A DNA stretch of 63,887 bases, counting the filler, from Globobulimina sp. (taxonomy: Eukaryota), in NCBI GenBank assembly GCA_003354225.1. It is 45 parts of 45 records of this genome, joined end to end, with 100 filler letters (N's around TTAATTAATTAA, not from the genome) between each part and the next. Parts side by side here need not be neighbours in the genome. Positions count along the whole stretch, not along the records: positions 21,339 to 22,660 come from PIVH01018675.1; 44 more parts are not named here. One strand, written 5' to 3'. Below the pieces are notes generated by a model. That model had not been told where the DNA came from. It did not search any database and saw only the letters and a list, made by a program, of their open reading frames with translations. Each line of letters starts with the position of its first letter. The stretch's first letter is position 1. Below, one piece after another: positions 4,518 to 62,730 of this stretch. The translations under genes and the position numbers were made by a program.

Positions 4518-5371
4518 TCAAATCAGTAAAGCGTTTTTTGCTTTGAGTAATTTTTTCAAATCTTGACATGATTGCTCCGTTTTGCTTGAATCGCTTATTA
4601 ATATTTTGCTCAATTCAAATGTCAATGTTCCCATTGTGTCCAAAATATCCATTTCGTGAATACTCCGAAAACGAGATGTTGCAGGATATGTAAGCCTTGG
4701 TTTTGAACGCATTGCATTAGATATATCCCCTTCATCTGATTCTGAACTGGAATCATCATCGTCCTATTTATTAGGTGCTGTATGTTGTATATTGCATTCA
4801 ATATAATCCATGATATTAAACCTGTATTGGCCTTAAAGCACTTCTGTGAACTGTTTTAATCATTGTTTGGAATGCAGGTGTTTGATAAGCACATTTTAAC
4901 CATTCACCGTCTTCGTCATTTATTACATCTGTTACTTTTCCCAAACACCATCGACTGTGAGTACTTGAATATATTTCTACTTTATCGGATATCGTCAATG
5001 ACATCACTGTTACTGATAAAATAATAATTAAAACAAATAAAAGTTATTTCATGCGGAATTATTAAATTCTTCAATACATTTTCTGCACTTCTGAGATAGC
5101 CAAATATTAAGCAATTTGACAGTTGTTTCCTTAATGATTCCTCAATGTTTTCACTATTTGCAGTTTCCAGATGGTAATATGTTCGAATTTGGCAAGAATC
5201 GCGTTTTTTTCGTTTAACAAATGTATGATTACGATTCTGAATCACAAGCCATTCTCCTTCTTCATCAGTGTATATATTAATAATTTCCCCGAAAATCCAT
5301 TTCTTCTGTTTTTTGGAATATATTTGAAGCGTTGATTTAATCTTCCATGATTCGATGCTTTTTTTTTGCAT
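4518..5371 (-). CDS. Protein with two Tudor/SH3-like repeats and a GYLR module; frame break near 4990 and introns
   Basis: IYSKKQKKWIFGEIINIYTDEEGEWL and IYSSTHSRWCLGKVTDVINDEDGEWL are homologous repeats. Confidence 0.55.
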
Positions 5372-7657: not shown

Positions 7658-7726
7658 TGTGATGATAGGGATTTGAACCAAAATCTTCTTTAATTAGATT
7701 AGATGCTTTCCTTAAGCTATCATCAC
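7658..7726 (-). ncRNA. tRNA-like element, degenerate copy
   Basis: GTGATGA/TCATCAC acceptor stem, TAGCTTAAGG A-box, GGTTCAAATCC B-box; aberrant anticodon arm. Confidence 0.6.
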
Positions 7727-7829
7727 AAAATGCAAATTCTTAATATCTAAAACAACGCCTTGTGATCCAAATATGCTCCATGCGATTATAAAATCTAAAT
7801 AGTAATTATTAATATTAAAGTGCGAGGAT

Positions 7830-8438
7830 ATTACATAATTGCCAGCGAAACAGTCAATTTTAATGGACCGAATACCGGCTCTTTCCACAGTTAATTCGGC
7901 GGTTAGAACACTGCAATTTTGTTCAGTGAGCGGGTCACATTTCCAAATGGTACGAACTATGTCAGTATCGGCCTCACCATTTTGACCACCGAACACAAAC
8001 AACGAACCGTTATAATATTCACACGCTGGCTCTTTTAACATGGATAAGGCGTCGTGTTGCGTTGCTGTGCATGTCTGTGGTGCCGCGTTGCTGAGTGAAC
8101 AGATTTGAATCACATTCAAACCGACAGAGTATAATGTGGCTGTGGCGTCGTCTATGCATAGTCCAGGACTGTATTGCATGGCGCTTTCGTCTAAATAGGC
8201 ATAGCTGGCAACAGTGTCATCAATCCTATTGAGACCGGAGATATTTGCGCTGTTTTGAGAGATGAAATATATGATATTGTCTGCGTTGGGCCCGATGATT
8301 TGGGCACTGCCACTCGATGTGTTTAGTATATCTGTTGGTAGCCCGGTATCGTTTTGCATGGTGTAATTTCGTGTGGATGGATCGAAAACAATTTTGTTTG
8401 TGTTGCCTCCGCCGTAGGAATTGGCTCCACCATAAATT
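7830..8438 (-). CDS. Kelch-like beta-propeller fragment (frame continues through the terminal repeat to ~7290)
   Basis: PACEYYNGSLFVFGGQ...IWKCDPLT...LTVERAG. Confidence 0.55.
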
Positions 8439-15993: not shown

Positions 15994-16104
15994 AGTCGAG
16001 AGTCTGGAGTCGTGAGTCGAGAGTGCAATGTTTGCCTTCGGCGGACCGATTTTAATTTAAGACAGAAAACATTATTTCGGACTCATGACTCACGACTATA
16101 AACT
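15994..16104. repeat. Inverted heptamer arrays (CGWGAGT)n ... (ACTCAYG)n
   Basis: 4 units at 15997-16024 and ~3 reverse units at 16081-16104. Confidence 0.75.
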
Positions 16105-16116
16105 AAAGGAAAACCC

Positions 16117-16972
16117 ATGATATTTGAAATCGAACCCACCATGCGTTGTAATCTTTGCTGCCCCATGTGTTCGCACGGCGCCAATCACAGGAAAGTGAGT
16201 GAAGATGAAATGACGCGGGAAGAGTGGTTGCATAATCTTTCACACTTTCTTCCTGAAGATGATCTCATTATCACAGGCGGTGAACCCACCTTGTATAAGG
16301 ACCTTGAGTTTATCATTGACACCTGGGTTGAGAAATTTGACAAGCCCGTGCTCAGGATTACGTCAAACGGCCATAACTTACGGCGGTGGTTGCCCCTGAA
16401 AGATAAGATTACGACATTTAATTTTTCCCATTACCCGGGAAGAAATGACTCAGATATTAATGCTGTAATAGAATCGGATCTCAGTTTTAAAGTGTATGCC
16501 TCAATGGATTACTTGAAATTATGGGATGTGTGGTTTGCACCGAAAAATTTCAGTATTTCCGAAGAAGTGCTTTCGGAGATTCCCCAGAAATGCGGCCTGG
16601 TTGAAACAAAGGCAGTGTGCAGAAAATTTGTCTGGCCCTGTTGTGTTGGAGGCTATTTTTATCGCCGGATAAAGGAGTTGCCGCAATATTATGGCGGTAT
16701 TGAAATCGGTTCTCCAAACTGGCGGGAACGTCTGGAAAATTTTAGTCCATGCAGGGAGATTTGCAGATACTGCTGTGTTATGCCGATCACTCAACTTTCG
16801 ACTGGTGAACTGATTCCGCTGGATAAGCGGGAACTCTCAGGACTTCAGTCACCAAAAGCAAATATAAATGAAATATTCAGCCAGGCATTTGATGATCACA
16901 AAAACGGACGGCTCGAACACGCCATTGAAGGATACCAGAAAGTCTTATTCGTTAACCCGGACCATCCAAGTG
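16117..16972 (+). CDS. Bacterial radical SAM protein with C-terminal TPR (3'-truncated)
   Basis: CNLCCPMC, TGGEPT, TSNG, auxiliary Cys cluster; AAAGGA RBS at 16105-16110. Confidence 0.85.
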
Positions 16973-18494: not shown

Positions 18495-19668
18495 ACGGTA
18501 AATTAGGCACATAGCTGTTTTATTTATGTATATATGTTTTTGTCACAAAGTATATATATATATATAATTAGCATACGTTCCAACCACAAACTGTACGGCC
18601 ACAGCAGCCAACAATAATGTTACCAATAATCCATATTGATCAGCTAACGAATCTTCGCCCATTGTAAACACCAAAAACGCGCCCAAAGTGGTTAAAAACA
18701 TCAAAAATATAATTTTCGATAAATAAACACCAAATTTACGTTGAATTTTTACACGAAAATTCATAAAGCTATAAACTGCCAATTGACCATCGAAATTTAC
18801 ATCGTATATCTCAGATAACATATTTTTTACATTATACTCTGTTAAATTACTGGAACCAACGTCTAAACCATTTGGAAAATCGAAAAGTCCTGAAAACGGA
18901 CAGAAATTTTGCACATTTTTCCGTTTCTTTAATTGCATTGTAATCTGTAAATCCTGTTTAAATAATACACCATGGCTATTATGTGAACTTTTGGCTTTGT
19001 TTTTGTTGTCCGATCATTCTATTTTATGTTGCTAAAAATGCTTAGATTCAATCATAAATCACAATATTTTGTTGAGCATATCACATTTTTAGCAGCCTGA
19101 AAACATAATGATTGGACATCAAAATAGCAGTTCGTGCTGTTTTTCATATATTGAAAATCCTCAAACATTGACAGAGTAAAATTTGACATACTTGACAATC
19201 AAATGGGAAATTTTGAAGTTCATATTTCTCAAACATTTCCAACTCCAATTTATAAACGACATAATTTTCATACTTCCATAATGAGTTTAAGATCTTTTGT
19301 CCATTCGTGCCAACAGCACCGACATGCAACACCCCGGAATCAATGAGCGTTTCTGACTCAACCAAGGCATTCTTAAATATTATATCCGTGTAAGCATCGT
19401 ATTCATGTTGATATAATTCCTTTGCTGTATGAGATTCTTGGTTCCATTCCTTAAAACGAATGAAATCTTGTTCTCCTCCTTGCCATGATAACGCCATTCG
19501 AATATCTGCAGAAAATGATTCGTTGATAACATCCACTTTTCGTATCCTATAAATCCAGATATGAATACCAATCAAATTGGAAGAGTTTGTCCACCATTCT
19601 GGATTATCTGCATATGGATTTTTGCCGAATTCAATGGCTTGTTCAAGTTGCTTGCTTTCTTCTGTCAT
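18495..19668 (-). CDS. Pentameric ligand-gated ion channel (Cys-less loop); exons 19668-19192, 18953-18577, 18514-18495
   Basis: FPFDCQ/DL across a GT-AG intron, M1-M2 helices, YVPNLP loop. Confidence 0.8.
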
Positions 19669-21338: not shown

Positions 21339-22418
21339 ATTATCAAAATATATTTCATTGAAACGCATGTCTTGAATATGTATATTTTCTTTGCTTTCAT
21401 TTTCAATCTCAATCTCATTTTCATATTCTTCAAAATAAATTGTATCAAATTCATTTTCAATAATTGGAGTCCACGGCACCTTTTTCATTTTTTTTGTTAA
21501 CAATTCCCCCCAATTTATACCATTAAAAAACGAATGTCTCATAATATCAAGTGATGTTAAACGCTTTTTTGCATTAATTGTCAATAAATTTGATAATAAA
21601 TCTTTGCAACATTCACTAAAATATGTCAATGGAAATGCCGGTTTTATCCTATAATTTTCATTAATTATATTGCTATAAACATTATTATTATCCTTGTTAT
21701 TATCATCATTATTGCATGAAAATGGTGTGAACGTAGTCAATAACTCATATATGATAACACCTAATGACCACCAATCGACTTCCAATCCATATCCTGTATT
21801 TAGTAATATTTCCGGTGCCACATATTCAGGCGTCCCGCATAACGTATATGTCTCGTTAAGTTGGATGAAATTATTAATACATTTTATTATTTTATTATTA
21901 AATTTCAATTTTTGAATATTTTCTTTGCGCAAATAACCATATAACAAATTCGAAGGTATCTTCATTTTTTTGCTGAAACCAAAATCTGTGAGTTTTATAT
22001 AACCGTCGCAATCAATTAATATATTTTCTGGTACCAATGCTCGATAAATTATATTATTTTTATGTAAATAATGCAATGCTAAAATCATTTGCGATGAATA
22101 AAAAGCTGCATGGATTTCTTTGAATTTTCCTACTTTTTTCATTAAGCAAAATAATTCGCCACCAATTACATATTCCATTATAAAATATATTTGATGTTTG
22201 TCTTGGTGCATTCCAACCATTTTTACTATAAACGGATGGGATAATGATGACAATATTTGATACTCCCAAATGGTATGTACTTGTTGACGCAAATCAAATG
22301 CGTCACTCTTTCTTATTCTTTTAATTGCCACATATTCGTTTGTTGCTACATTTTGTGCCAATTCTACCCGTCCAAAGGATCCTGTTCCGATTGTTTTTAT
22401 TAAATTATAATTCTCCAT
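21339..22418 (-). CDS. PKA-like AGC kinase; probable pseudokinase with an activation-loop insert
   Basis: GTGSFG, AIK, DFG, TLCGTPEY, DTIYFEEY tail; catalytic loop reads YRALVPEN. Confidence 0.85.
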
Positions 22419-25504: not shown

Positions 25505-25695
25505 NNNNNNNNNNNNNNNNNNNNNNNNNNNNNNNNNNNNNNNNNNNNTTAATTAATTAANNNNNNNNNNNNNNNNNNNNNNNNNNNNNNNNNNNNNNNN
25601 NNNNAATATAAGCAATGTTAACTATTCATTTAATATTTATGTATATAGTAGATTCAAAATAAGATAACCATACAATATATATATATTAAATTTAG

Positions 25696-26770
25696 GATAC
25701 AACCACCGTAATAACAACATTTGGAGAATGTCAATTAAATACTGGAGCACTGGTAACATTTGAACAAATTGATTCATTTGGAAAATATATTGATAATGGA
25801 TATGGAATGTATTATGAGCTAAAAACAAAGAAAATATTTCATTTTGACACATTGTCAGAACAGATAAACAATAAAAAACCAAAATTAATTCAATGTGGAT
25901 CCAATCAAAATGCAATGGAACAACATTTATTCTATTTATCATTGCAGCAATTCAGAAATAATAATAACAATAAATTACCACTGCCAACATCAAAAGAAAA
26001 TGCATTGGAAGTTTATAAATATTTTATTAAACTATGTGATGAATATAACATTAAATGTAATTACAATGATCCGCATATTAAACAGAAATATATCTCATTA
26101 GCTCGTTGTTCATCGTGCATAATAAGTCCAATGTGCTCTATTATCGGCGGTTTGGTCGCGGAGGAAATATTCAAAGGATGCTGCAATACATTTACTCCAA
26201 TTCACCAGTTTTTATATTTTGATCAATATGAATGTTTGCATAATGATCTAAGAGATGAGCTTATTACTTTTGGATATATTCGTAAAATACAAATGTCTTT
26301 GTCTGATAACAAGATAGTACCCGAATCAATATATAATTTGTGTCATTTATTTGTTGTGGATACTGATTGGAACAAATATTCGCCACACAATTCTCGATAC
26401 GATGATTATATTGGAATTTTCGGGCAAGCTCTACAACGCAAAGTGTTGCAGTCGCGTGTATTTTTAATTGGCGTTGGTTGCATTGGTGCGGAATTATTAA
26501 AAATGTGGGCTTTAATGGGAATGGCATGCGATAAAGGTAAAAAGGGTCAGATTTATGTGAGTGATAAAAGTCGACTCGAATTATTTAACAAAAGCAATAT
26601 GCCCTGGATATTTAAACGGAGACATATTGGACAGGCCAAATCTACGGCGGCAGCGCATGTCACTTCCACTATGAATCCCGACATTAATATTATTCCAATT
26701 GAAGATACTGTTGCAAAATATAACAAACATGTTTATGATTATGACTTTTGGACAGAATTAACCGGCACTT
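25696..26770 (+). CDS. Divergent ubiquitin-activating enzyme E1 (UBA1-like) fragment with insert
   Basis: SPMCSIIGGLVAEEIFKG, PIHQFLYFD, SRYDDYIGIFG, VFLIGVGCIGAELLK, MNPDINI. Confidence 0.8.
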
Positions 26771-27027
26771 TTGATACATTACGAAAGAATAATATGAAAT
26801 ATAAGAGGGAATCTATTTGAAATTCTCCACAATATAATTCTCACAATATAACTCTCGCAATACATCGATTTGTATTTTTATGCAGTAGATTGTACACAAA
26901 TCGATGCCAATGTAAATCCAGGAGTTNNNNNNNNNNNNNNNNNNNNNNNNNNNNNNNNNNNNNNNNNNNNTTAATTAATTAANNNNNNNNNNNNNNNNNN
27001 NNNNNNNNNNNNNNNNNNNNNNNNNNT

Positions 27028-28204: not shown

Positions 28205-28707
28205 TTTATAATTGAACCAAATGTCAGATATTTTCAATGTGATCATATTATTTACAAAGGATATTGAAACATGTTGACACATAATATTATTTATGTTGAA
28301 ACACAAAACACACAAACTTGAAATTTGTACAATAAAACAACAAATAGANNNNNNNNNNNNNNNNNNNNNNNNNNNNNNNNNNNNNNNNNNNNTTAATTAA
28401 TTAANNNNNNNNNNNNNNNNNNNNNNNNNNNNNNNNNNNNNNNNNNNNATAATTATATATGCATCGCCTTTTTGAAACATATAAATATGTCATACATCAT
28501 TGTCATTTTCCATAATGACTGAAATGAGTGACTGTGTTCTCTCAAGCGGTGATCCAAATTATTGTTTTTCTTTGTTATTTTGTAGTAAGTTTTGTAGTAA
28601 GTGTGTGCGAGGATAATGTATACAGTTTCAAACCTTGTACCAAAATTCCAACCCTAACAGTTTTACCACTTTAACAAAAAAACACGTTAACATTAAATAC
28701 CAAGAAC

Positions 28708-29770
28708 ATGTCAACATTCAGACTTCTGATTTTAATCCTTATCCATCAACTACATTCCATACAATATGAAATTCATTTAAATGCTACACATACCGGTCAC
28801 GCCGACATACAATATATATTTAAAAACGATCAAAACGTAAACACAGCACATAATATATGGCATATTAACCCCCAATCACAAGACCACTATGATTTATTAG
28901 TAGCTCTTGAACGAGAATGGATGTTCAATCCATCCATGCAATCACAACTAACCCTGACCCTCCACGGCCACACTCCGAATATATCCGAATCAGACGGCGA
29001 ATTTCTAATGGTCTTCGCAGTGGACACGCAATATTTTAGTGTTGTAATTCGTTTAGACACACAACGAAATCGTTGGAAATATTTTCCCGGAATTCTGTCA
29101 GACTCAAATCCATCCCTTCAAACTCTGGCAAACACACAAAATGTCCTCGCAGATATCATCCAAGGCGGTCCAGACAGTCTTAATCGATGGAAAAGAGTGT
29201 CAAACAATGACACATGGACAGATATAGAGCCACCATACAAAGATGCCTTGCAATGGCCATTCAGCATAAAACTAACAAACAATCCAATCCGTAACACTTT
29301 ATTCTATGAATGCATATTACATAATAAAATATTAGAGACAGAATATCAGACAGCATTTATGACAGATAAACCCATTTATATTTACATAATGAATGATGCG
29401 GACGATGGCAAACCATTCGATATATATTCAATCCATGTACAATATGCAGACAATCAAACTGTAAATATAACAAACACGCAAATAGGTACAATACATACCA
29501 CACCAAACTCATTTTTATTTCTTTCTTTTCGTACAACAATGTTGCCATAATCAGGTACATCGACATCGACATCGATGCAAACACAACAAACAGAGTTACC
29601 TATATTCAATGCATCGTCACCACCAACAATGAAGCCATCTAAATCACCGATAATGGAGGAGACAATAATAGCATTTGCAGCGAGTGCAAGCGATCAAAAT
29701 ATAGTTGGTCTGATGATAGGAGTTGTTTTTGGCTGTGTCACTGTGGCTATTTTGATTGTGTTGGGCTTTT
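28708..29770 (+). CDS. Type I membrane surface protein (signal peptide, novel ectodomain, PT linker, TM); intron ~29484-29554
   Basis: Hydrophobic N-terminus and TM; paralog of 62731-63887. Confidence 0.65.
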
Positions 29771-42668: not shown

Positions 42669-43747
42669 TTTTCTTTTTTGAAGTTATCTACTCTGAGTCC
42701 TTCCCTTTTCTCCTGCCAGGCAATAAAGTTCTTATGTGCTAATTCAAAAGCATTTATACCTCCAATTGATGAATTAAATCCCTGCCAGACTACCTGAAAA
42801 GTAAAAATTCGGGTGGCCAGTCTGAAAAACACTAAAATTATCATCATAATTTCGGCAAGAGCTTTATCCAGAATACAAACTTGAAAATAAAGAATTACAA
42901 TCATTAATAGTATTATTACCGGTTCTCTAAGTGACTTTGTAAGCCCTAAAAGAAAAACTGTTAAGAATCGAAGTTTAGCTAATTTGTTTACTTCATTGCT
43001 GAGTTTCGCACTCATTTTATTGGGGCCATTTGTTGCCTTTAAATATTTAAAAAACTCAATAGTTTGAATAAGTAATCCCTGAAATGAAGCATTTCGTTTC
43101 GATGTTTTGATTGAGTAGCTCCGTGATAATTTATTCAAATAAATGAATATCATATAAAGCAAAATACCGGAAAGTAATGCAAAGATTGAAACCTGCCAAT
43201 TGATTGCTACTGATATAATAGAATAAATGACTATATATAATAATGCTACAATCGCATTGCAGTACTGGCCAAAAGCACCGACAGTTTTATCAATTTCCGT
43301 TGTGATTATGTTGCTCAAATAACCAATATTGCAATCTAGATATTTTCTGTATTGTATATTTTTAAATGCTGAAAATATAATTGATCGCAAATCCTTAAAT
43401 ATTTTTGCTAATATAAAAGATGATAGAAAGGCCTGTATTATAAGAATCACTCCCTTTACAATAAAAATTATACCCATTAGCAAAAGAATACTATTGAATG
43501 TTGGTTCTACATGAATAAAGTCCATGAATCTTTCAAAATAAATGTTGACAGCATTTGTCTCTGATGAATCAGAAAAAGAATAAGAGATTAGCGGAATGAA
43601 AAGAGCTATGCCAACACCTTCAACCATTCCTCCCGCAATAATTACAGCAGTTAGTAAATATAGTTTCGCACCCGCAAATCTTTTAAAAACGATATAATAA
43701 TAATATATATCGAAAATAAAAGGTATTTTATTAGGTCTCATTTTCAA
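42669..43747 (-). CDS. Bacterial ABC exporter transmembrane domain (glycan-locus type)
   Basis: EGVGIALFIPLI, G.LSNIITTE, FFRL; intronless. Confidence 0.8.
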
Positions 43748-44090
43748 CCATATGTGATTACAATAATAATTTTTAAGATATCTTAGTAAGTGTTAAGGAT
43801 AATTTCACTTGGTTTTTTCATATTTATCAAAGAAAAAAGGATCTTATTTCTCAGTTCCTTAGTCAAACTGGGCCTGATATAGGACGCCAGGGCTTGTTGT
43901 GACAAGACGACTCCCCCCTTTAATTATAAAAACTGACATAATCGTAAACAGCATGTATTCAAACTTAATTGGGATATTTAGAAAGTCCATNNNNNNNNNN
44001 NNNNNNNNNNNNNNNNNNNNNNNNNNNNNNNNNNTTAATTAATTAANNNNNNNNNNNNNNNNNNNNNNNNNNNNNNNNNNNNNNNNNNNN

Positions 44091-54042: not shown

Positions 54043-55361
54043 TCAATTATTAATTGAGTTTTGTACCTTTGGTATTGCCTCAATATCAAAGAATTTCGCA
54101 ATTTGTTTGAGCCGCAATAATAGGAATATTAATGCAAACAAATACGATAAAAAAACGGTTGTTATGTAAATAGCCCAAATATGTGATCTGGTGGTAAATT
54201 GTTGATAATTTTTAACTCCATCATACCACCAAAAAGTAAGACATTCCACAAATAATCCATGACAGCAATAAACAATTAACGAACTTTTATATATTATTTT
54301 AGCCATTTGTTTATTTTTTACGTCTGAAAATTGAGTGTCCATCGTATATTTTGCAGACATACAGATTGCATATAAAAATATCCAGCATGCAATAATAAAC
54401 ATGCTACGTTGATAACAATCTGGTTCTTGGAATATATTCACAAATGTATACGCTCGGTCATGTTTTTCTGTTCTTATGGATATGGCACTGAATATCAACA
54501 GAATCGCACAGTGATTGCAAATTATCTTAAACCAATTCAAATATTCATTGAGTTTATTTGTTTTTTTTCGTACAAATTCAACATAAACAATTTTACTGAA
54601 TACAATACCAAATAAATGGAACATCCAGTAATACAAATATGTGATATCATAATCAATCGCAGCATCAAAGGCACTCAATTCCTCGCCTTCATTTGCAAAA
54701 TGTCGAATATTCAACAAAAAGCAAGCAACTGTCATAGCAATTGGAATAATGGCAAATATGAAGAGAGTCAATGATATGAATTTAGTCAATGCTGAGTGAG
54801 ATATGTAATATATTTTGATGGCTGTAAACAATACACAATGACTCAATATTATTATTACAATGAGATAGAATTGTTTTATCCATCTCATTGCACCATAATA
54901 TATCAAACATATGCAACCAATCATAAACAGCAGCATTATATATTTTTTATATTCTTTATTTTTGTTATAATTGTTGGCAGTATGCATAAGAATGTCTATT
55001 AATTTGATAAATGGATATGACATAATTTCCAACATAGTTAAGAAGGGTAAAAACCATAACCAGCCAAAGCCAACATGAATAAAACATTTTTTCCAAAAAT
55101 CAAAAAATAAAAATTGAATAAATGATATCATTTTTTTGTGTTCAGATATGGAACAATCGCCGTGCAACTTAAATAATATTCCATTTTTTAAATGTAATAC
55201 CCGTTGTTTTAGATACATGGCAGGAATAAAAAATAACAGAGTTGATATAAGTAATGGAATGATTAGGTATGAAATACGAGATAATTTAATATTATATTGC
55301 CTTTTTTTAAGTCCTTTCACCATGCCACTGATCATAAAAAATAATGGTAAGCCAACAGATT
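54043..55361 (-). CDS. Acyltransferase-3 (OpgC-like) membrane protein
   Basis: LPLFFMISG, R..LIIPL, LWFL, S...Y..H; many TM segments. Confidence 0.65.
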
Positions 55362-57297: not shown

Positions 57298-58203
57298 TTA
57301 TTTAAATTTATGAATTGATAAAGTATTGGAACATTCACCAGCTCGTCCTGGATGAGAATAAGTGATTGTTTGCAAATCCCAACCTTTTTCTGCAAATGTT
57401 TGCTTGTTTTGAACAATAAAATCTTGAATAGAATCAATTGGATTTACAATTTGAAATTTAGTAAATGTAATATTTCTTTCTTGATTTAATAAATCAATAC
57501 AACGCATTATCTCAAATACAAAATCTTCATTTAAATGTATTGATGGCTTATATTTACTCCCTGGTCGATTAAAGATTGTAAATGAGACTAATTTTGGACA
57601 TAAGTCAATAAATAATGATATTTTCATGGTTTCTGTCTTTGAGGAGGACACAAATATTTGTTTAAATTTACCAAATCCATAAATATCACATTCCCAAACA
57701 TCATGATGATACTTAAAATGTTTATCAACATTGGCATAATTTATATTTATGTCTTTTTTCTTATTAATAAATTGATGAAATAATTGTGAAATATATTGAG
57801 GAATATCGGATATATATGGTTTCTCCAAATAAATATCTGCAATTTCACCATTTACTAATCTTAATAACGTATTTACGTCGCCTTTATTTGGTTTAATACC
57901 ATCCAATGGATATCCATTAAACATCTCATCCAAAATATTAATAACTTTTATTAAACGTTTAAAATTTTGTTTGGACGGAATATTTCGAATTGTATCAAAT
58001 GTTAAGTTTTGTAGTCCCCCAATAAATAATCGTTCATCTTCATTGGCAAACGAGGTCCAAAAAGTTGCATCCATAAAGACAGCCGAACTGTGAGTATTTT
58101 TTAAATCCAATACGATTCCTTCTGCGCCAAATATTGACCATGCAATGGTGAAATCTGTGGTTGTGGACAAAGGGCCGCATAATTTTATGGTAGTGCTATC
58201 AAA
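57298..58203 (-). CDS. R-S-E-type ADP-ribosyltransferase-like domain protein, C-terminal part
   Basis: GPLSTTT...A..F...G.VL...FANEDERLF. Confidence 0.55.
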   Translation of the reverse strand, partial: FDSTTIKLCGPLSTTTDFTIAWSIFGAEGIVLDLKNTHSSAVFMDATFWTSFANEDERLFIGGLQNLTFDTIRNIPSKQNFKRLIKVINILDEMFNGYPLDGIKPNKGDVNTLLRLVNGEIADIYLEKPYISDIPQYISQLFHQFINKKKDININYANVDKHFKYHHDVWECDIYGFGKFKQIFVSSSKTETMKISLFIDLCPKLVSFTIFNRPGSKYKPSIHLNEDFVFEIMRCIDLLNQERNITFTKFQIVNPIDSIQDFIVQNKQTFAEKGWDLQTITYSHPGRAGECSNTLSIHKFK

Positions 58204-58303: not shown

Positions 58304-59399
58304 TTCGTTAATGTTTCCTGTGACCACATTGCAATACAATGCAACACAAACATTAACAACAGAAACGTACGTTTGTTTGTGGTGGTTGGTTGAAATGAAA
58401 GATAATATAAACCCAATGGGCGCATTAAATCTAATTATGTTATATCAAATCATTGAATATCTGGATATATCACTCAGCAATACATCTTATGAAATTGATT
58501 TTGTATGGACATTTTACAATAATTCACACTTACAAACATTAAATAATTATTATTTGATTCATGTCAATGTAAACATCATCATCTTTATGGAGCCTTTGCA
58601 AGTAAATAGGAGCAATTTCATTGATTTTATACAATTATCAAACGAGATCGAGTCAGATTGGATGGACTTTTATGGAATAAATGACATTTTCATCTCAGAT
58701 ACATTTATTTCCGGAGTGTCATACAGAGAGAATAATTCATATTTGTTTTGTGGTTTGCCACCAAAATATATCCTCATACAAACAACATTTGTCAATGTCA
58801 GCTCAATCAACGAAAATGTTGAAAACGATAATTTTTGGACACAGTTATTTGATGACATTTATATTCCGGCGATTTGTAGCTGTGTATCGTGCATATTTTT
58901 AGTTTTGTTATTGTGTGCTCTGAAGATTCGATCTAAAAATAAACTGAAATCACAGCGTATTGATTCTGTGAAAAACAGCAAAGATAAAAATAAGACTCAA
59001 AATGTGGCACACTCTGATATTATAAATGTAGTTGAAGAGAAATATGCGTTTGAAAGAGATGATGATTTATTCAAAAAAACGAAAAGTTATGACAGTGAGG
59101 CTTTATATGAAGAAAAAAAAGAAGAACAAGAACCTGAAACTAATTCAAGCACAAAAATAGAAAATGGAGAAAATGATAGTAAATTAAAAGAATTATACAT
59201 TGATGAAATAACGAAATGGTTTAATGAAAAGTTATACAAATTATTGGATGCGAGACACGAATATATTCAATTATTTATAATGAATGGATTTGAGAATATG
59301 TCGGTTATCAAAGAAATTACGGATAATGATTTAATATCAATTGGCATCAATAAACTTGGACATAGAAAACAAATATTGTTACAAATTGAGGGATTATAA
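58304..59399 (+). CDS. Single-pass membrane protein with C-terminal SAM domain
   Basis: TM, then YIQLFIMNGFENM...DLISIGINKLGHRKQIL. Confidence 0.8.
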
Positions 59400-62244: not shown

Positions 62245-62730
62245 ACTTTACGATTGTTTTTGATCAAAAGAGAGGAATGTGAATAAATTTTGAAAGATCA
62301 AGGGTTGATTTCTGTTACAATCTATACGGCACTGAAAACGGGTCGATACTACTTTGCTATCGACACACTAACCGGATTGTAAACTCCTTGTATGACAAAC
62401 TTTGTTACTACCACGAGACTTGTTTTTGCTAGTAGCGTATACTTACAGTCTACTAATACCGTGCTTNNNNNNNNNNNNNNNNNNNNNNNNNNNNNNNNNN
62501 NNNNNNNNNNTTAATTAATTAANNNNNNNNNNNNNNNNNNNNNNNNNNNNNNNNNNNNNNNNNNNNTAATCTGGTTTACAATTTGATAAAAATAGATCAG
62601 GTCAATATAACTTTTTTTTCGAAACGATACCAATTTCTAAAGCTGTTTTTTTTTTAAAGTACTTTAATACTTCAAGCTTAAAAACCGCTTAAATAAATCG
62701 TTTTGTTGAATCTGTGGCTTCTGTGCCACG

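Follow-up and report, generated by a model that had tools for sequence, protein, structure and literature searches.

Do short look-alike segments carried by unrelated proteins belong to one module, and if so, what would such a module do for its carriers? This question is raised by a stretch of 63,887 nucleotides (nt) from Globobulimina sp. (GenBank assembly GCA_003354225.1), hereafter the window, in which an earlier note had described a segment marked by the residues GYxR in a protein kinase, in a UBA1-like protein and in an SH3/Tudor-like protein. Foraminifera are major marine protists for which functional genomics is nearly nil. Judged by their sequence, the SH3/Tudor-like and UBA1-like segments are certain members of one family, whereas the kinase segment is a doubtful one. 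The family is large in Foraminifera, has no Pfam entry and represents an autonomous, portable domain.

The window is made up of 45 contigs of 1321-1323 nt each, joined by spacers of the form N44 + TTAATTAATTAA + N44. The GC content of the contigs ranges from 26 to 36%, which corresponds to an AT-rich eukaryote, and most of them carry long eukaryote-type open reading frames (ORFs) with Asn-rich runs. Two sets of ORFs were scored, namely 1288 stop-to-stop ORFs from all six frames and 73 long ORFs of at least 110 amino acids (aa), the latter totalling 16,368 residues.

Identification of the module family

All three segments of the earlier note are present in the sequence. The motif GY[IL]R occurs three times in the 73 long ORFs, against a mean of 0.19 after shuffling, and three occurrences were reached in 0.15% of 2000 shuffles; the motif was picked post hoc. 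Inside the window the segments recover each other poorly. Mutual recovery of the Tudor-like and UBA1-like segments was weak (phmmer E 0.03-0.09), leave-one-out profiles gave E values of 0.03-0.06, and the kinase ORF was absent from the six best-scoring ORFs listed for a profile of the Tudor-like and UBA1-like segments.

An exhaustive HMMER search with a profile of the three copies against 1,835,955,588 representative proteins (50% clustering) recovered 34 proteins at E<=1e-3, the top match reaching 1.2e-8 and 50.6 bits. All 34 were aligned on the same ~35 residues (profile positions about 2-45), with the consensus L-[IV]-x-G-Y-[IV]-R-x-I-[EQ]-x-x-L-(4-6)-I-I-P-x-[DE]-I-x-x-[IL]-C-x-x-[YF]-Y. 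Among the 35 outside copies the Gly is invariant (35/35), and the Tyr (31/35, with Phe in the four others), Arg (31/35), Pro (33/35) and Cys (34/35) are nearly so. The window was scored with a family profile built from these 35 outside segments and containing no window sequence at all. Over the 1288 ORFs, this profile gave 61.3 bits (E 2.9e-18) for the Tudor-like copy and 56.8 bits (E 7.1e-17) for the UBA1-like copy, both of which carry all five signature residues (Gly, Tyr, Arg, Pro and Cys); the score of the UBA1 insert was approached by none of 1000 shuffles. Because the kinase segment scored only 7.3 bits, it is best regarded as a borderline member and at most as a decayed copy, the two others being certain members on their profile scores. 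The mutual profile recovery that the earlier note had proposed as its test fails inside the window, and is rescued by the outside family for two copies only.

Thirty of the 34 proteins were looked up. Species labels were attached to eight of them, all eight Foraminifera (Bolivina argentea, 6; Nonionella stella, 1; Globobulimina turgida, 1), and the other 22 carried no species name (ENA, 19; Logan, 1; NCBI, 1; merc, 1). Six representatives among the thirty come from a single Bolivina argentea transcriptome. That a weak profile of three sequences retrieved 34 representatives at 50% clustering agrees, in terms of family diversity, with the large expansion that had been suspected from the window.

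Other searches were less productive. A word-indexed search with the Tudor-like ORF, whose candidates were of 73-233 aa only, found nothing, and a search of the same kind with the three-copy alignment against longer proteins gave 444 candidates, none at E<=10. A degenerate DNA pattern run over metagenome contigs returned nine loci, the sole true member being L009; the eight others were chance matches, seven of them lacking the Cys/Tyr-Tyr signature or containing stops and one lying at 54% GC. L009 (1303-2619, plus strand) is found on a 15-kb public contig with a GC content of 0.307 and codes, uninterrupted by introns, for a protein that begins with the module and whose body resembles the Bolivina protein P0033. 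The gene upstream of it has a SAM-like C-terminus, as does the window ORF at 58305-59396. A literature search at the level of titles and abstracts, in which an earlier description may have escaped notice, found no description of such a module.

Architecture and predicted fold

The module lies as a rule close to the N-terminus, its start falling among the first 60 residues of the protein in 33 of 35 outside copies. Domains downstream of it in the 23 of the 34 proteins that were scanned are Kelch (3), SPRY (3, one of them above the Pfam cut-off), TLDc (1), Ras (1), WD40 (1) and PHD (1, below the cut-off), and in one Nonionella protein the module occurs twice, each time at the head of a repeat of ~240 residues. 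Because its sequence is kept ahead of many unrelated folds, the module is an autonomous domain, and the idea of a shuffled adaptor put forward in the earlier note stands in this respect: it is a real coding module that is reused and that, in the outside family, heads unrelated domains.

No Pfam family covers the module in the window proteins, nor in the 23 outside proteins at E<=0.1. When 36 isolated segments were compared with Pfam at E<=10, eight unrelated single matches were obtained and none was to F-box, SOCS box or BTB, in a setting where the HMMER filters nonetheless lose most matches above ~0.1. A search of the Protein Data Bank (PDB) sequences with one copy gave no match, and the profile matches in the PDB, to ribosomal protein S13 (E 0.02) and Vam6 (0.71), were rejected as chance. 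We rate the module as a lineage-specific, portable adaptor-type domain that is uncatalogued in the domain libraries searched. AlphaFold2, given a 36-row alignment, predicted a helix-loop-helix with helices at positions 3-22 and 30-44 and a mean pLDDT of 87.8.

The copy in the UBA1-like protein

The module copy of the UBA1-like protein, LRDELITFGYIRKIQMSLSDNKIVPESIYNLCHLFVV, lies at 26248..26358 on the plus strand, in the linker between two adenylation-type halves, and its profile match covers ORF residues 185-221. It amounts to ~37 extra residues between YFDQYECL and SRYD, and these are missing in all ten full-length relatives aligned, as expected from the short linker that the earlier note had attributed to UBA1. 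In this alignment the copy appears as a true insertion of ~37 residues, and the case is an unusual and clear one of a folded module grafted into an inter-domain linker of a conserved enzyme scaffold.

The exon that carries it (25696..26805, plus strand) encodes, according to Pfam, an E1 four-helix bundle (E1_4HB, 1.5e-05) and the start of a second ThiF-type domain (ThiF, 1.3e-19). A total of 27 full-length E1 relatives were found at E<=1e-10, the best being 37-41% identical. The ThiF-type adenylation domain and the four-helix bundle place the protein among the E1 enzymes; its adenylation motifs, on the other hand, are not conserved. It reads GVGCIGAE where E1 relatives have G[AS]GAIGCE, KSNMPWIFKR where ten of ten relatives have SNL[NS]RQFLFR, and TLRKNNMK where relatives have ALDN[VI]xAR. 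The E1 motifs that are degenerate here have a role in ATP binding. The half with the catalytic Cys lies beyond the contig.

This contig alone was compared with contigs from sequencing runs. Runs X6 to X8 are taken as RNA by guess only, and run X2, which is identical to the window and possibly its source, is not an independent witness. No placement was obtained for X8 on the UBA1-like contig, and the contigs of X6 and X7, which differ from the window by 3-6%, leave a gap at 26068-26337 that includes helix 1 of the insert. Upstream of 25696 the X7 contig continues with letters ending in AATATAAGCAAT, which correspond to window positions 25605-25616; this joint, read by us and not listed by the tool, delimits a GT..AG intron of 79 nt (25617..25695, plus strand). 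Because the X7 contig joins across this intron, X6 and X7 appear to behave as spliced RNA from a close relative and the window as genomic DNA. Since the 26 differences between the gene and the RNA-type contigs comprise 12 synonymous and 14 non-synonymous ones, the comparison suggests a transcribed and still constrained paralogue, not a dead gene.

Two irregularities were noted on the same contig. At 25773/25774 the X6 and X7 contigs hold 84 extra letters, the window protein is devoid of ~30 residues of the FCCH domain that are present in ten of ten relatives, and the identical X2 contig begins exactly at 25774; this gap may reflect a collapse in the assembly, a different allele or a genuine deletion. 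At the other end, positions 26806-26926 form a high-copy repeat, with an X2 depth of 180-750 against ~4 for the gene, and after 26805 the RNA-type contigs diverge while reading in frame as E1-like. Because the depth jumps at the repeat and the RNA-type contigs continue differently, the contig is chimeric or the gene is interrupted after 26805.

The copy in the SH3/Tudor-like protein

The second certain copy, SNCLIFGYLRSAENVLKNLIIPHEITFICFNYYFI, is located at 5015..5119 on the minus strand between two SH3/Tudor/Agenet-like repeats of a small protein, with a profile match over ORF residues 89-124. The repeats themselves are weak hints (Pfam SH3_1, 0.003; Pfam Agenet, 0.067; PDB Agenet, 0.89). 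Directly after the module, our reading of the sequence and of two overlapping ORFs yields a putative intron of 34 nt (4980..5013, minus strand), or of 37 nt if it extends to 4977. If it were removed, the second SH3/Tudor-like repeat would follow the module exon in frame, and a putative intron right behind the module would fit exon shuffling.

The kinase insert

The kinase ORF extends on the minus strand from its Met (MENYNLIK) to the contig end (21339..22418) and contains a Pkinase domain (Pfam, 6.7e-68). Its best PDB matches are catalytic subunits of protein kinase A (PKA; 1.3e-68), with the AGC tail aligned to residue 336, and both the Pkinase domain and this C-terminal tail assign it to the PKA-like AGC kinases. 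Residues 23-175 align with residues 40-192 of solved PKA and residues 211-359 with PKA 194-336. Between them stand 35 residues where solved PKA has one, in agreement with the short linker claimed for PKA. This N/K/I-rich insert of the activation segment occupies 21855..21959 (minus strand); the earlier note had seen it correctly and placed it 3 nt off, at 21858-21962. The order along the protein is DFGFSKKMK, then IPSNLLYGYLRKENIQKLKFNNKIIKCINNFIQLN, then ETYTLCGTPEY. A second, Asn-rich insert (NNDDNNKDNNN) is found in the same kinase, and its catalytic loop reads YRALVPEN against YRDLKPEN in PKA. Because the catalytic Asp and Lys are lost, the protein is a predicted pseudokinase, probably under relaxed constraint.

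With the outside-only profile the kinase insert obtained an E value of 0.22 and rank 5 of the 1288 ORFs, and among the 73 long ORFs an E value of 0.013 and rank 3. Membership of the kinase copy, at the place given for it in the earlier note, is thus not significant window-wide; that it is the weakest copy and has lost the Pro, as the same note stated, agrees with its score of 7.3 bits.

It could still be a true copy of the module, grafted into the activation loop of the pseudokinase and eroded under relaxed constraint and AT pressure. The insert has the length of the module, and its first half (LLYGYLRKenIQKLKFNNKII), which is the only part aligned, fits profile positions 7-25 and resembles helix 1. 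Its uncorrected score of 15.1 bits was reached by none of 3000 composition-preserving shuffles (maximum 14.3) and, when GYLR was fixed and the other 32 residues were shuffled, by 81 of 5000. The third rank among the long ORFs, the degenerate catalytic loop, which speaks for relaxed constraint, and the certain insertion of the module into another enzyme of the window, the UBA1-like protein, also argue for a decayed copy. However, two non-coding ORFs are placed ahead of the insert and score equally well over the whole window, the segment had been chosen for its GYLR seed, and the six top-scoring ORFs listed with a profile of the two certain copies do not include it. Nothing is left of the Pro, Cys and Tyr-Tyr of helix 2, and the GC content of 0.19, against 0.293 in the flanks, together with the richness in N, K and I, would be those of a plain low-complexity expansion. 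We therefore hold a decayed copy to be slightly short of an even chance, the choice between it and an AT-driven low-complexity expansion being about even.

Proposed function

Taken together, the best joint explanation of these observations, which we consider fairly probable, is that of a module family of portable domains, with two certain copies in the window, spread by old shuffling and serving in docking. According to this explanation, the module would be a helix-loop-helix of ~35 residues, usually N-terminal, that stands ahead of Kelch, SPRY, WD40, TLDc, PHD or a Ras-like GTPase. The UBA1-like copy would be an in-frame insertion into a variable surface linker of a fast-evolving protein with degenerate adenylation motifs, and the hairpin would dock its carrier onto a common partner protein. 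We infer docking because the conserved hydrophobic residues exceed the need of a hairpin and because a Gly-Arg-Glu/Gln stripe is conserved on helix 1. In our reading of the alignment columns there are ~13 conserved hydrophobic positions, which form a broad stripe on each helix (i, i+1, i+4, i+5, i+8 and i+12 in helix 1; i, i+3, i+4, i+7 and i+8 in helix 2). Among the possible roles, docking onto a common partner seems the most likely one on these patterns.

Several observations weigh against this explanation. Mutual recovery among the three window copies falls short of significance, the certain ones number only two among the 1288 ORFs of the window, and the kinase insert, which keeps the Gly, Tyr and Arg, is devoid of the helix-2 signature. 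Foldseek returned no match with the module model, and the best matches of a wide VIA fold search (Z 4.9) were generic hairpins throughout; no F-box or SOCS chain was among the 50 VIA rows listed, which excludes nothing. The N-terminal placement comes from predicted proteins of short contigs, some of which are maybe truncated. The UBA1-like contig has its assembly oddities (84 nt missing and a terminal repeat), and the UBA1-like fragment was modelled with low confidence (mean pLDDT 56.6, below 50 in the insert), so that surface placement is a prediction and only the helix pattern (183-203 and 210-219) matches the module. Finally, the function is derived from architecture only.

As to the partner, our leading guess, which we put forward tentatively, is a role like that of the substrate receptors of ubiquitin ligases, in the fashion of F-box or SOCS-box proteins, because the repertoire of partner domains is close to that of these receptors. 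Somewhat more daring, and in our opinion unlikely, would be that Foraminifera own a docking domain of their own for a protein-modification hub, which would do the job of the F-box or SOCS box while being unrelated to them and would link Kelch, WD40, SPRY, TLDc, PHD and GTPase receptors to one scaffold. Its grafting into an E1-like pseudoenzyme, and maybe into a pseudokinase, would then tie these inactive enzymes to the same hub as regulators or decoys. Another targeting role makes up what remains once the ligase-receptor guess and self-association are set apart.

Self-association is the more serious of the two other readings of function, and we see it as possible but rather unlikely. On this reading the hairpins would pair into a four-helix bundle and bring two carriers together as a dimer. 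The ~13 conserved hydrophobic positions of the predicted hairpin, more than a lone hairpin can bury, would be accounted for, and the tied generic fold matches include a helical zipper that dimerises (1q2h, Z 4.5). But this match lies within the noise, no Z value reaching 5, and the invariant Gly and the conserved Arg would be left unexplained.

The module could also be a true, divergent F-box or SOCS/BC-box that brings its carriers to Skp1 or Elongin C and thereby to cullin ligases, which appears improbable. The Kelch, WD40, SPRY and Ras-like GTPase partners match those of such proteins, the N-terminal placement is F-box-like, and the pattern of helix 2 (I-I-P-x-[DE]-I-x-x-[IL]-C-x-x-[YF]) is reminiscent of both the opening of the F-box and the BC box, a likeness already pointed out in the earlier note. 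Membership in either family, as suggested there, is not borne out by the Pfam results, with F-box, SOCS box and BTB matched by none of the 36 segments and none of the 23 whole proteins. The most conserved part of the module, helix 1 with its G-Y-[IV]-R, stands before the IP helix and is matched by nothing in either box, and AlphaFold2 predicts two helices in 45 residues where both boxes have three, the fold matches being to generic hairpins. No Skp1 was found among the 53 other window ORFs scanned.

Mode of spread

The two certain copies are about 50% identical at the DNA level in their conserved blocks (18/36 and 20/39 nt) and use different codons for the same residues. A scan for target-site duplications, which the earlier note had proposed to look for, and for terminal repeats found only short AT-rich chance repeats at the flanks, and the best direct repeat had a spacing of 86 nt, which is not a multiple of 3. 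Because of this low nucleotide identity, these different codons and the lack of flanking repeats, conservation is at the protein level and the event is old, which points to old gene-level domain shuffling with no sign of a currently mobile cassette.

The mobile coding cassette of the earlier note, be it transposon-, introner- or intein-like and inserting in frame, has accordingly found no confirmation, and we hold it to be very improbable. In-frame inserts of like length (35-37 aa) do occur in two unrelated enzymes; yet apart from the nucleotide divergence and the flanks described above, most outside copies (33 of 35) are N-terminal domains of an ordinary kind, and a segment of 35 aa only shows no endonuclease or splicing motif.

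Even less credible is the view that the inserts are not protein but introns that are in frame and left unspliced, or sequence derived from introns: short introns exist in this genome (the 79-nt GT..AG intron described above), the GC content of the kinase insert is intron-like and an in-frame GT-AG candidate of 84 nt (26234-26317) lies inside the UBA1 insert, within the gap left by the runs, but the UBA1 insert, read in frame, fits the outside family along both helices (56.8 bits), a stop-free stretch of 35 codons in such AT-rich DNA has by our estimate a chance of ~5%, and the kinase offers only two in-frame GT/GC-AG candidates, both cutting into the DFG motif. In the intron scan, AT-AC pairs were abundant by chance and none had an ATATCC start. 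The X6 RNA-type contig runs from 26338 to 26546 with no joint; the exonic state of the UBA1 insert is thereby supported over its distal part (26338-26358) only. Both sequence and contigs make introns unlikely.

Other observations and significance

Other features of the window are given here as they were noted. ORFs of bacterial flavour are present on separate contigs and encode a radical SAM protein with a TPR-like tail (16102-16971, plus strand), an ABC-transporter membrane domain (42671-43792, minus strand) and an acyltransferase_3 (54046-55359, minus strand); they may stem from bacterial contigs in the assembly or from gene transfer. Two minus-strand ORFs (57301-58203 and 7715-8437) share the motif [FI]-I-A-W-S-I-F-G-[AS]-[EQ]-G-[IV]-V-L-D-[LI]-K-N, neither has a Pfam match, and the pair may be another lineage-specific family. 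An N-terminal domain of ~250 aa with no Pfam match is common to two plus-strand ORFs (28675-29547 and 62710-63885), one of which has a long Pro/Thr/Ser-rich tail. Finally, an ORF at 19147-19668 (minus strand), with no Pfam match at E<=1e-4, contains an FPFDCQVC motif, which we take to resemble the Cys-loop of pentameric ligand-gated ion channels.

If widespread, a portable module that Pfam lacks and that stands before the classic substrate-receptor domains would mark a large unannotated class of foraminiferal proteins. The family profile from the 35 outside copies can label such proteins in annotation, and the module would give a handle on the hub that it binds, via pull-down or co-folding.

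Comparison with known systems

The F-box (Pfam PF00646/PF12937) is a domain of ~45 aa with three helices that starts with L-P-x-E-I-x-x-x-I, and the SOCS box (PF07525) is a C-terminal domain composed of a BC box (L-x-x-x-C-x-x-x-[VIL]) and a Cul5 box. Proteins with either box carry Kelch, WD40, SPRY and Ras-like GTPase partners. The foraminiferal module is like the F-box in being a short helical module that is usually N-terminal, in its fusions to Kelch and WD40 and in a helix 2 that opens with [LI]-P-x-[ED]-I. It differs by its length of ~35 aa, by its two predicted helices, by the best-conserved stretch L-[IV]-x-G-Y-[IV]-R-x-I-E, which lies before the IP helix, and by having no Pfam match. 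With the SOCS/BC-box proteins it shares partners such as SPRY (SPSB-like), WD40 (WSB-like) and a Ras-like GTPase (Rab40-like), as well as a near-invariant Cys four residues past a conserved Ile, as in L-x-x-x-C. It has neither the Pfam match nor the C-terminal position of the SOCS box with its Cul5 box, being N-terminal in 33 of 35 copies.

The kinase insert invites two other comparisons. NDR/LATS and plant AGCVIII kinases have activation-segment inserts of 30-100 aa, located as here between the DFG motif and the APE-proximal segment. The window kinase, in contrast, is PKA-like and has lost the catalytic Asp and Lys, and its insert is N/K/I-rich, with a conservation that is only putative. Asn/Lys-rich low-complexity insertions are also known in proteins of the AT-rich genomes of Plasmodium and Dictyostelium, and both the kinase insert, with its GC content of 0.19, and the NNDDNNKDNNN insert are like them. 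The UBA1-like and Tudor-like copies, unlike such insertions, are not of low complexity and match the family at 57-61 bits.

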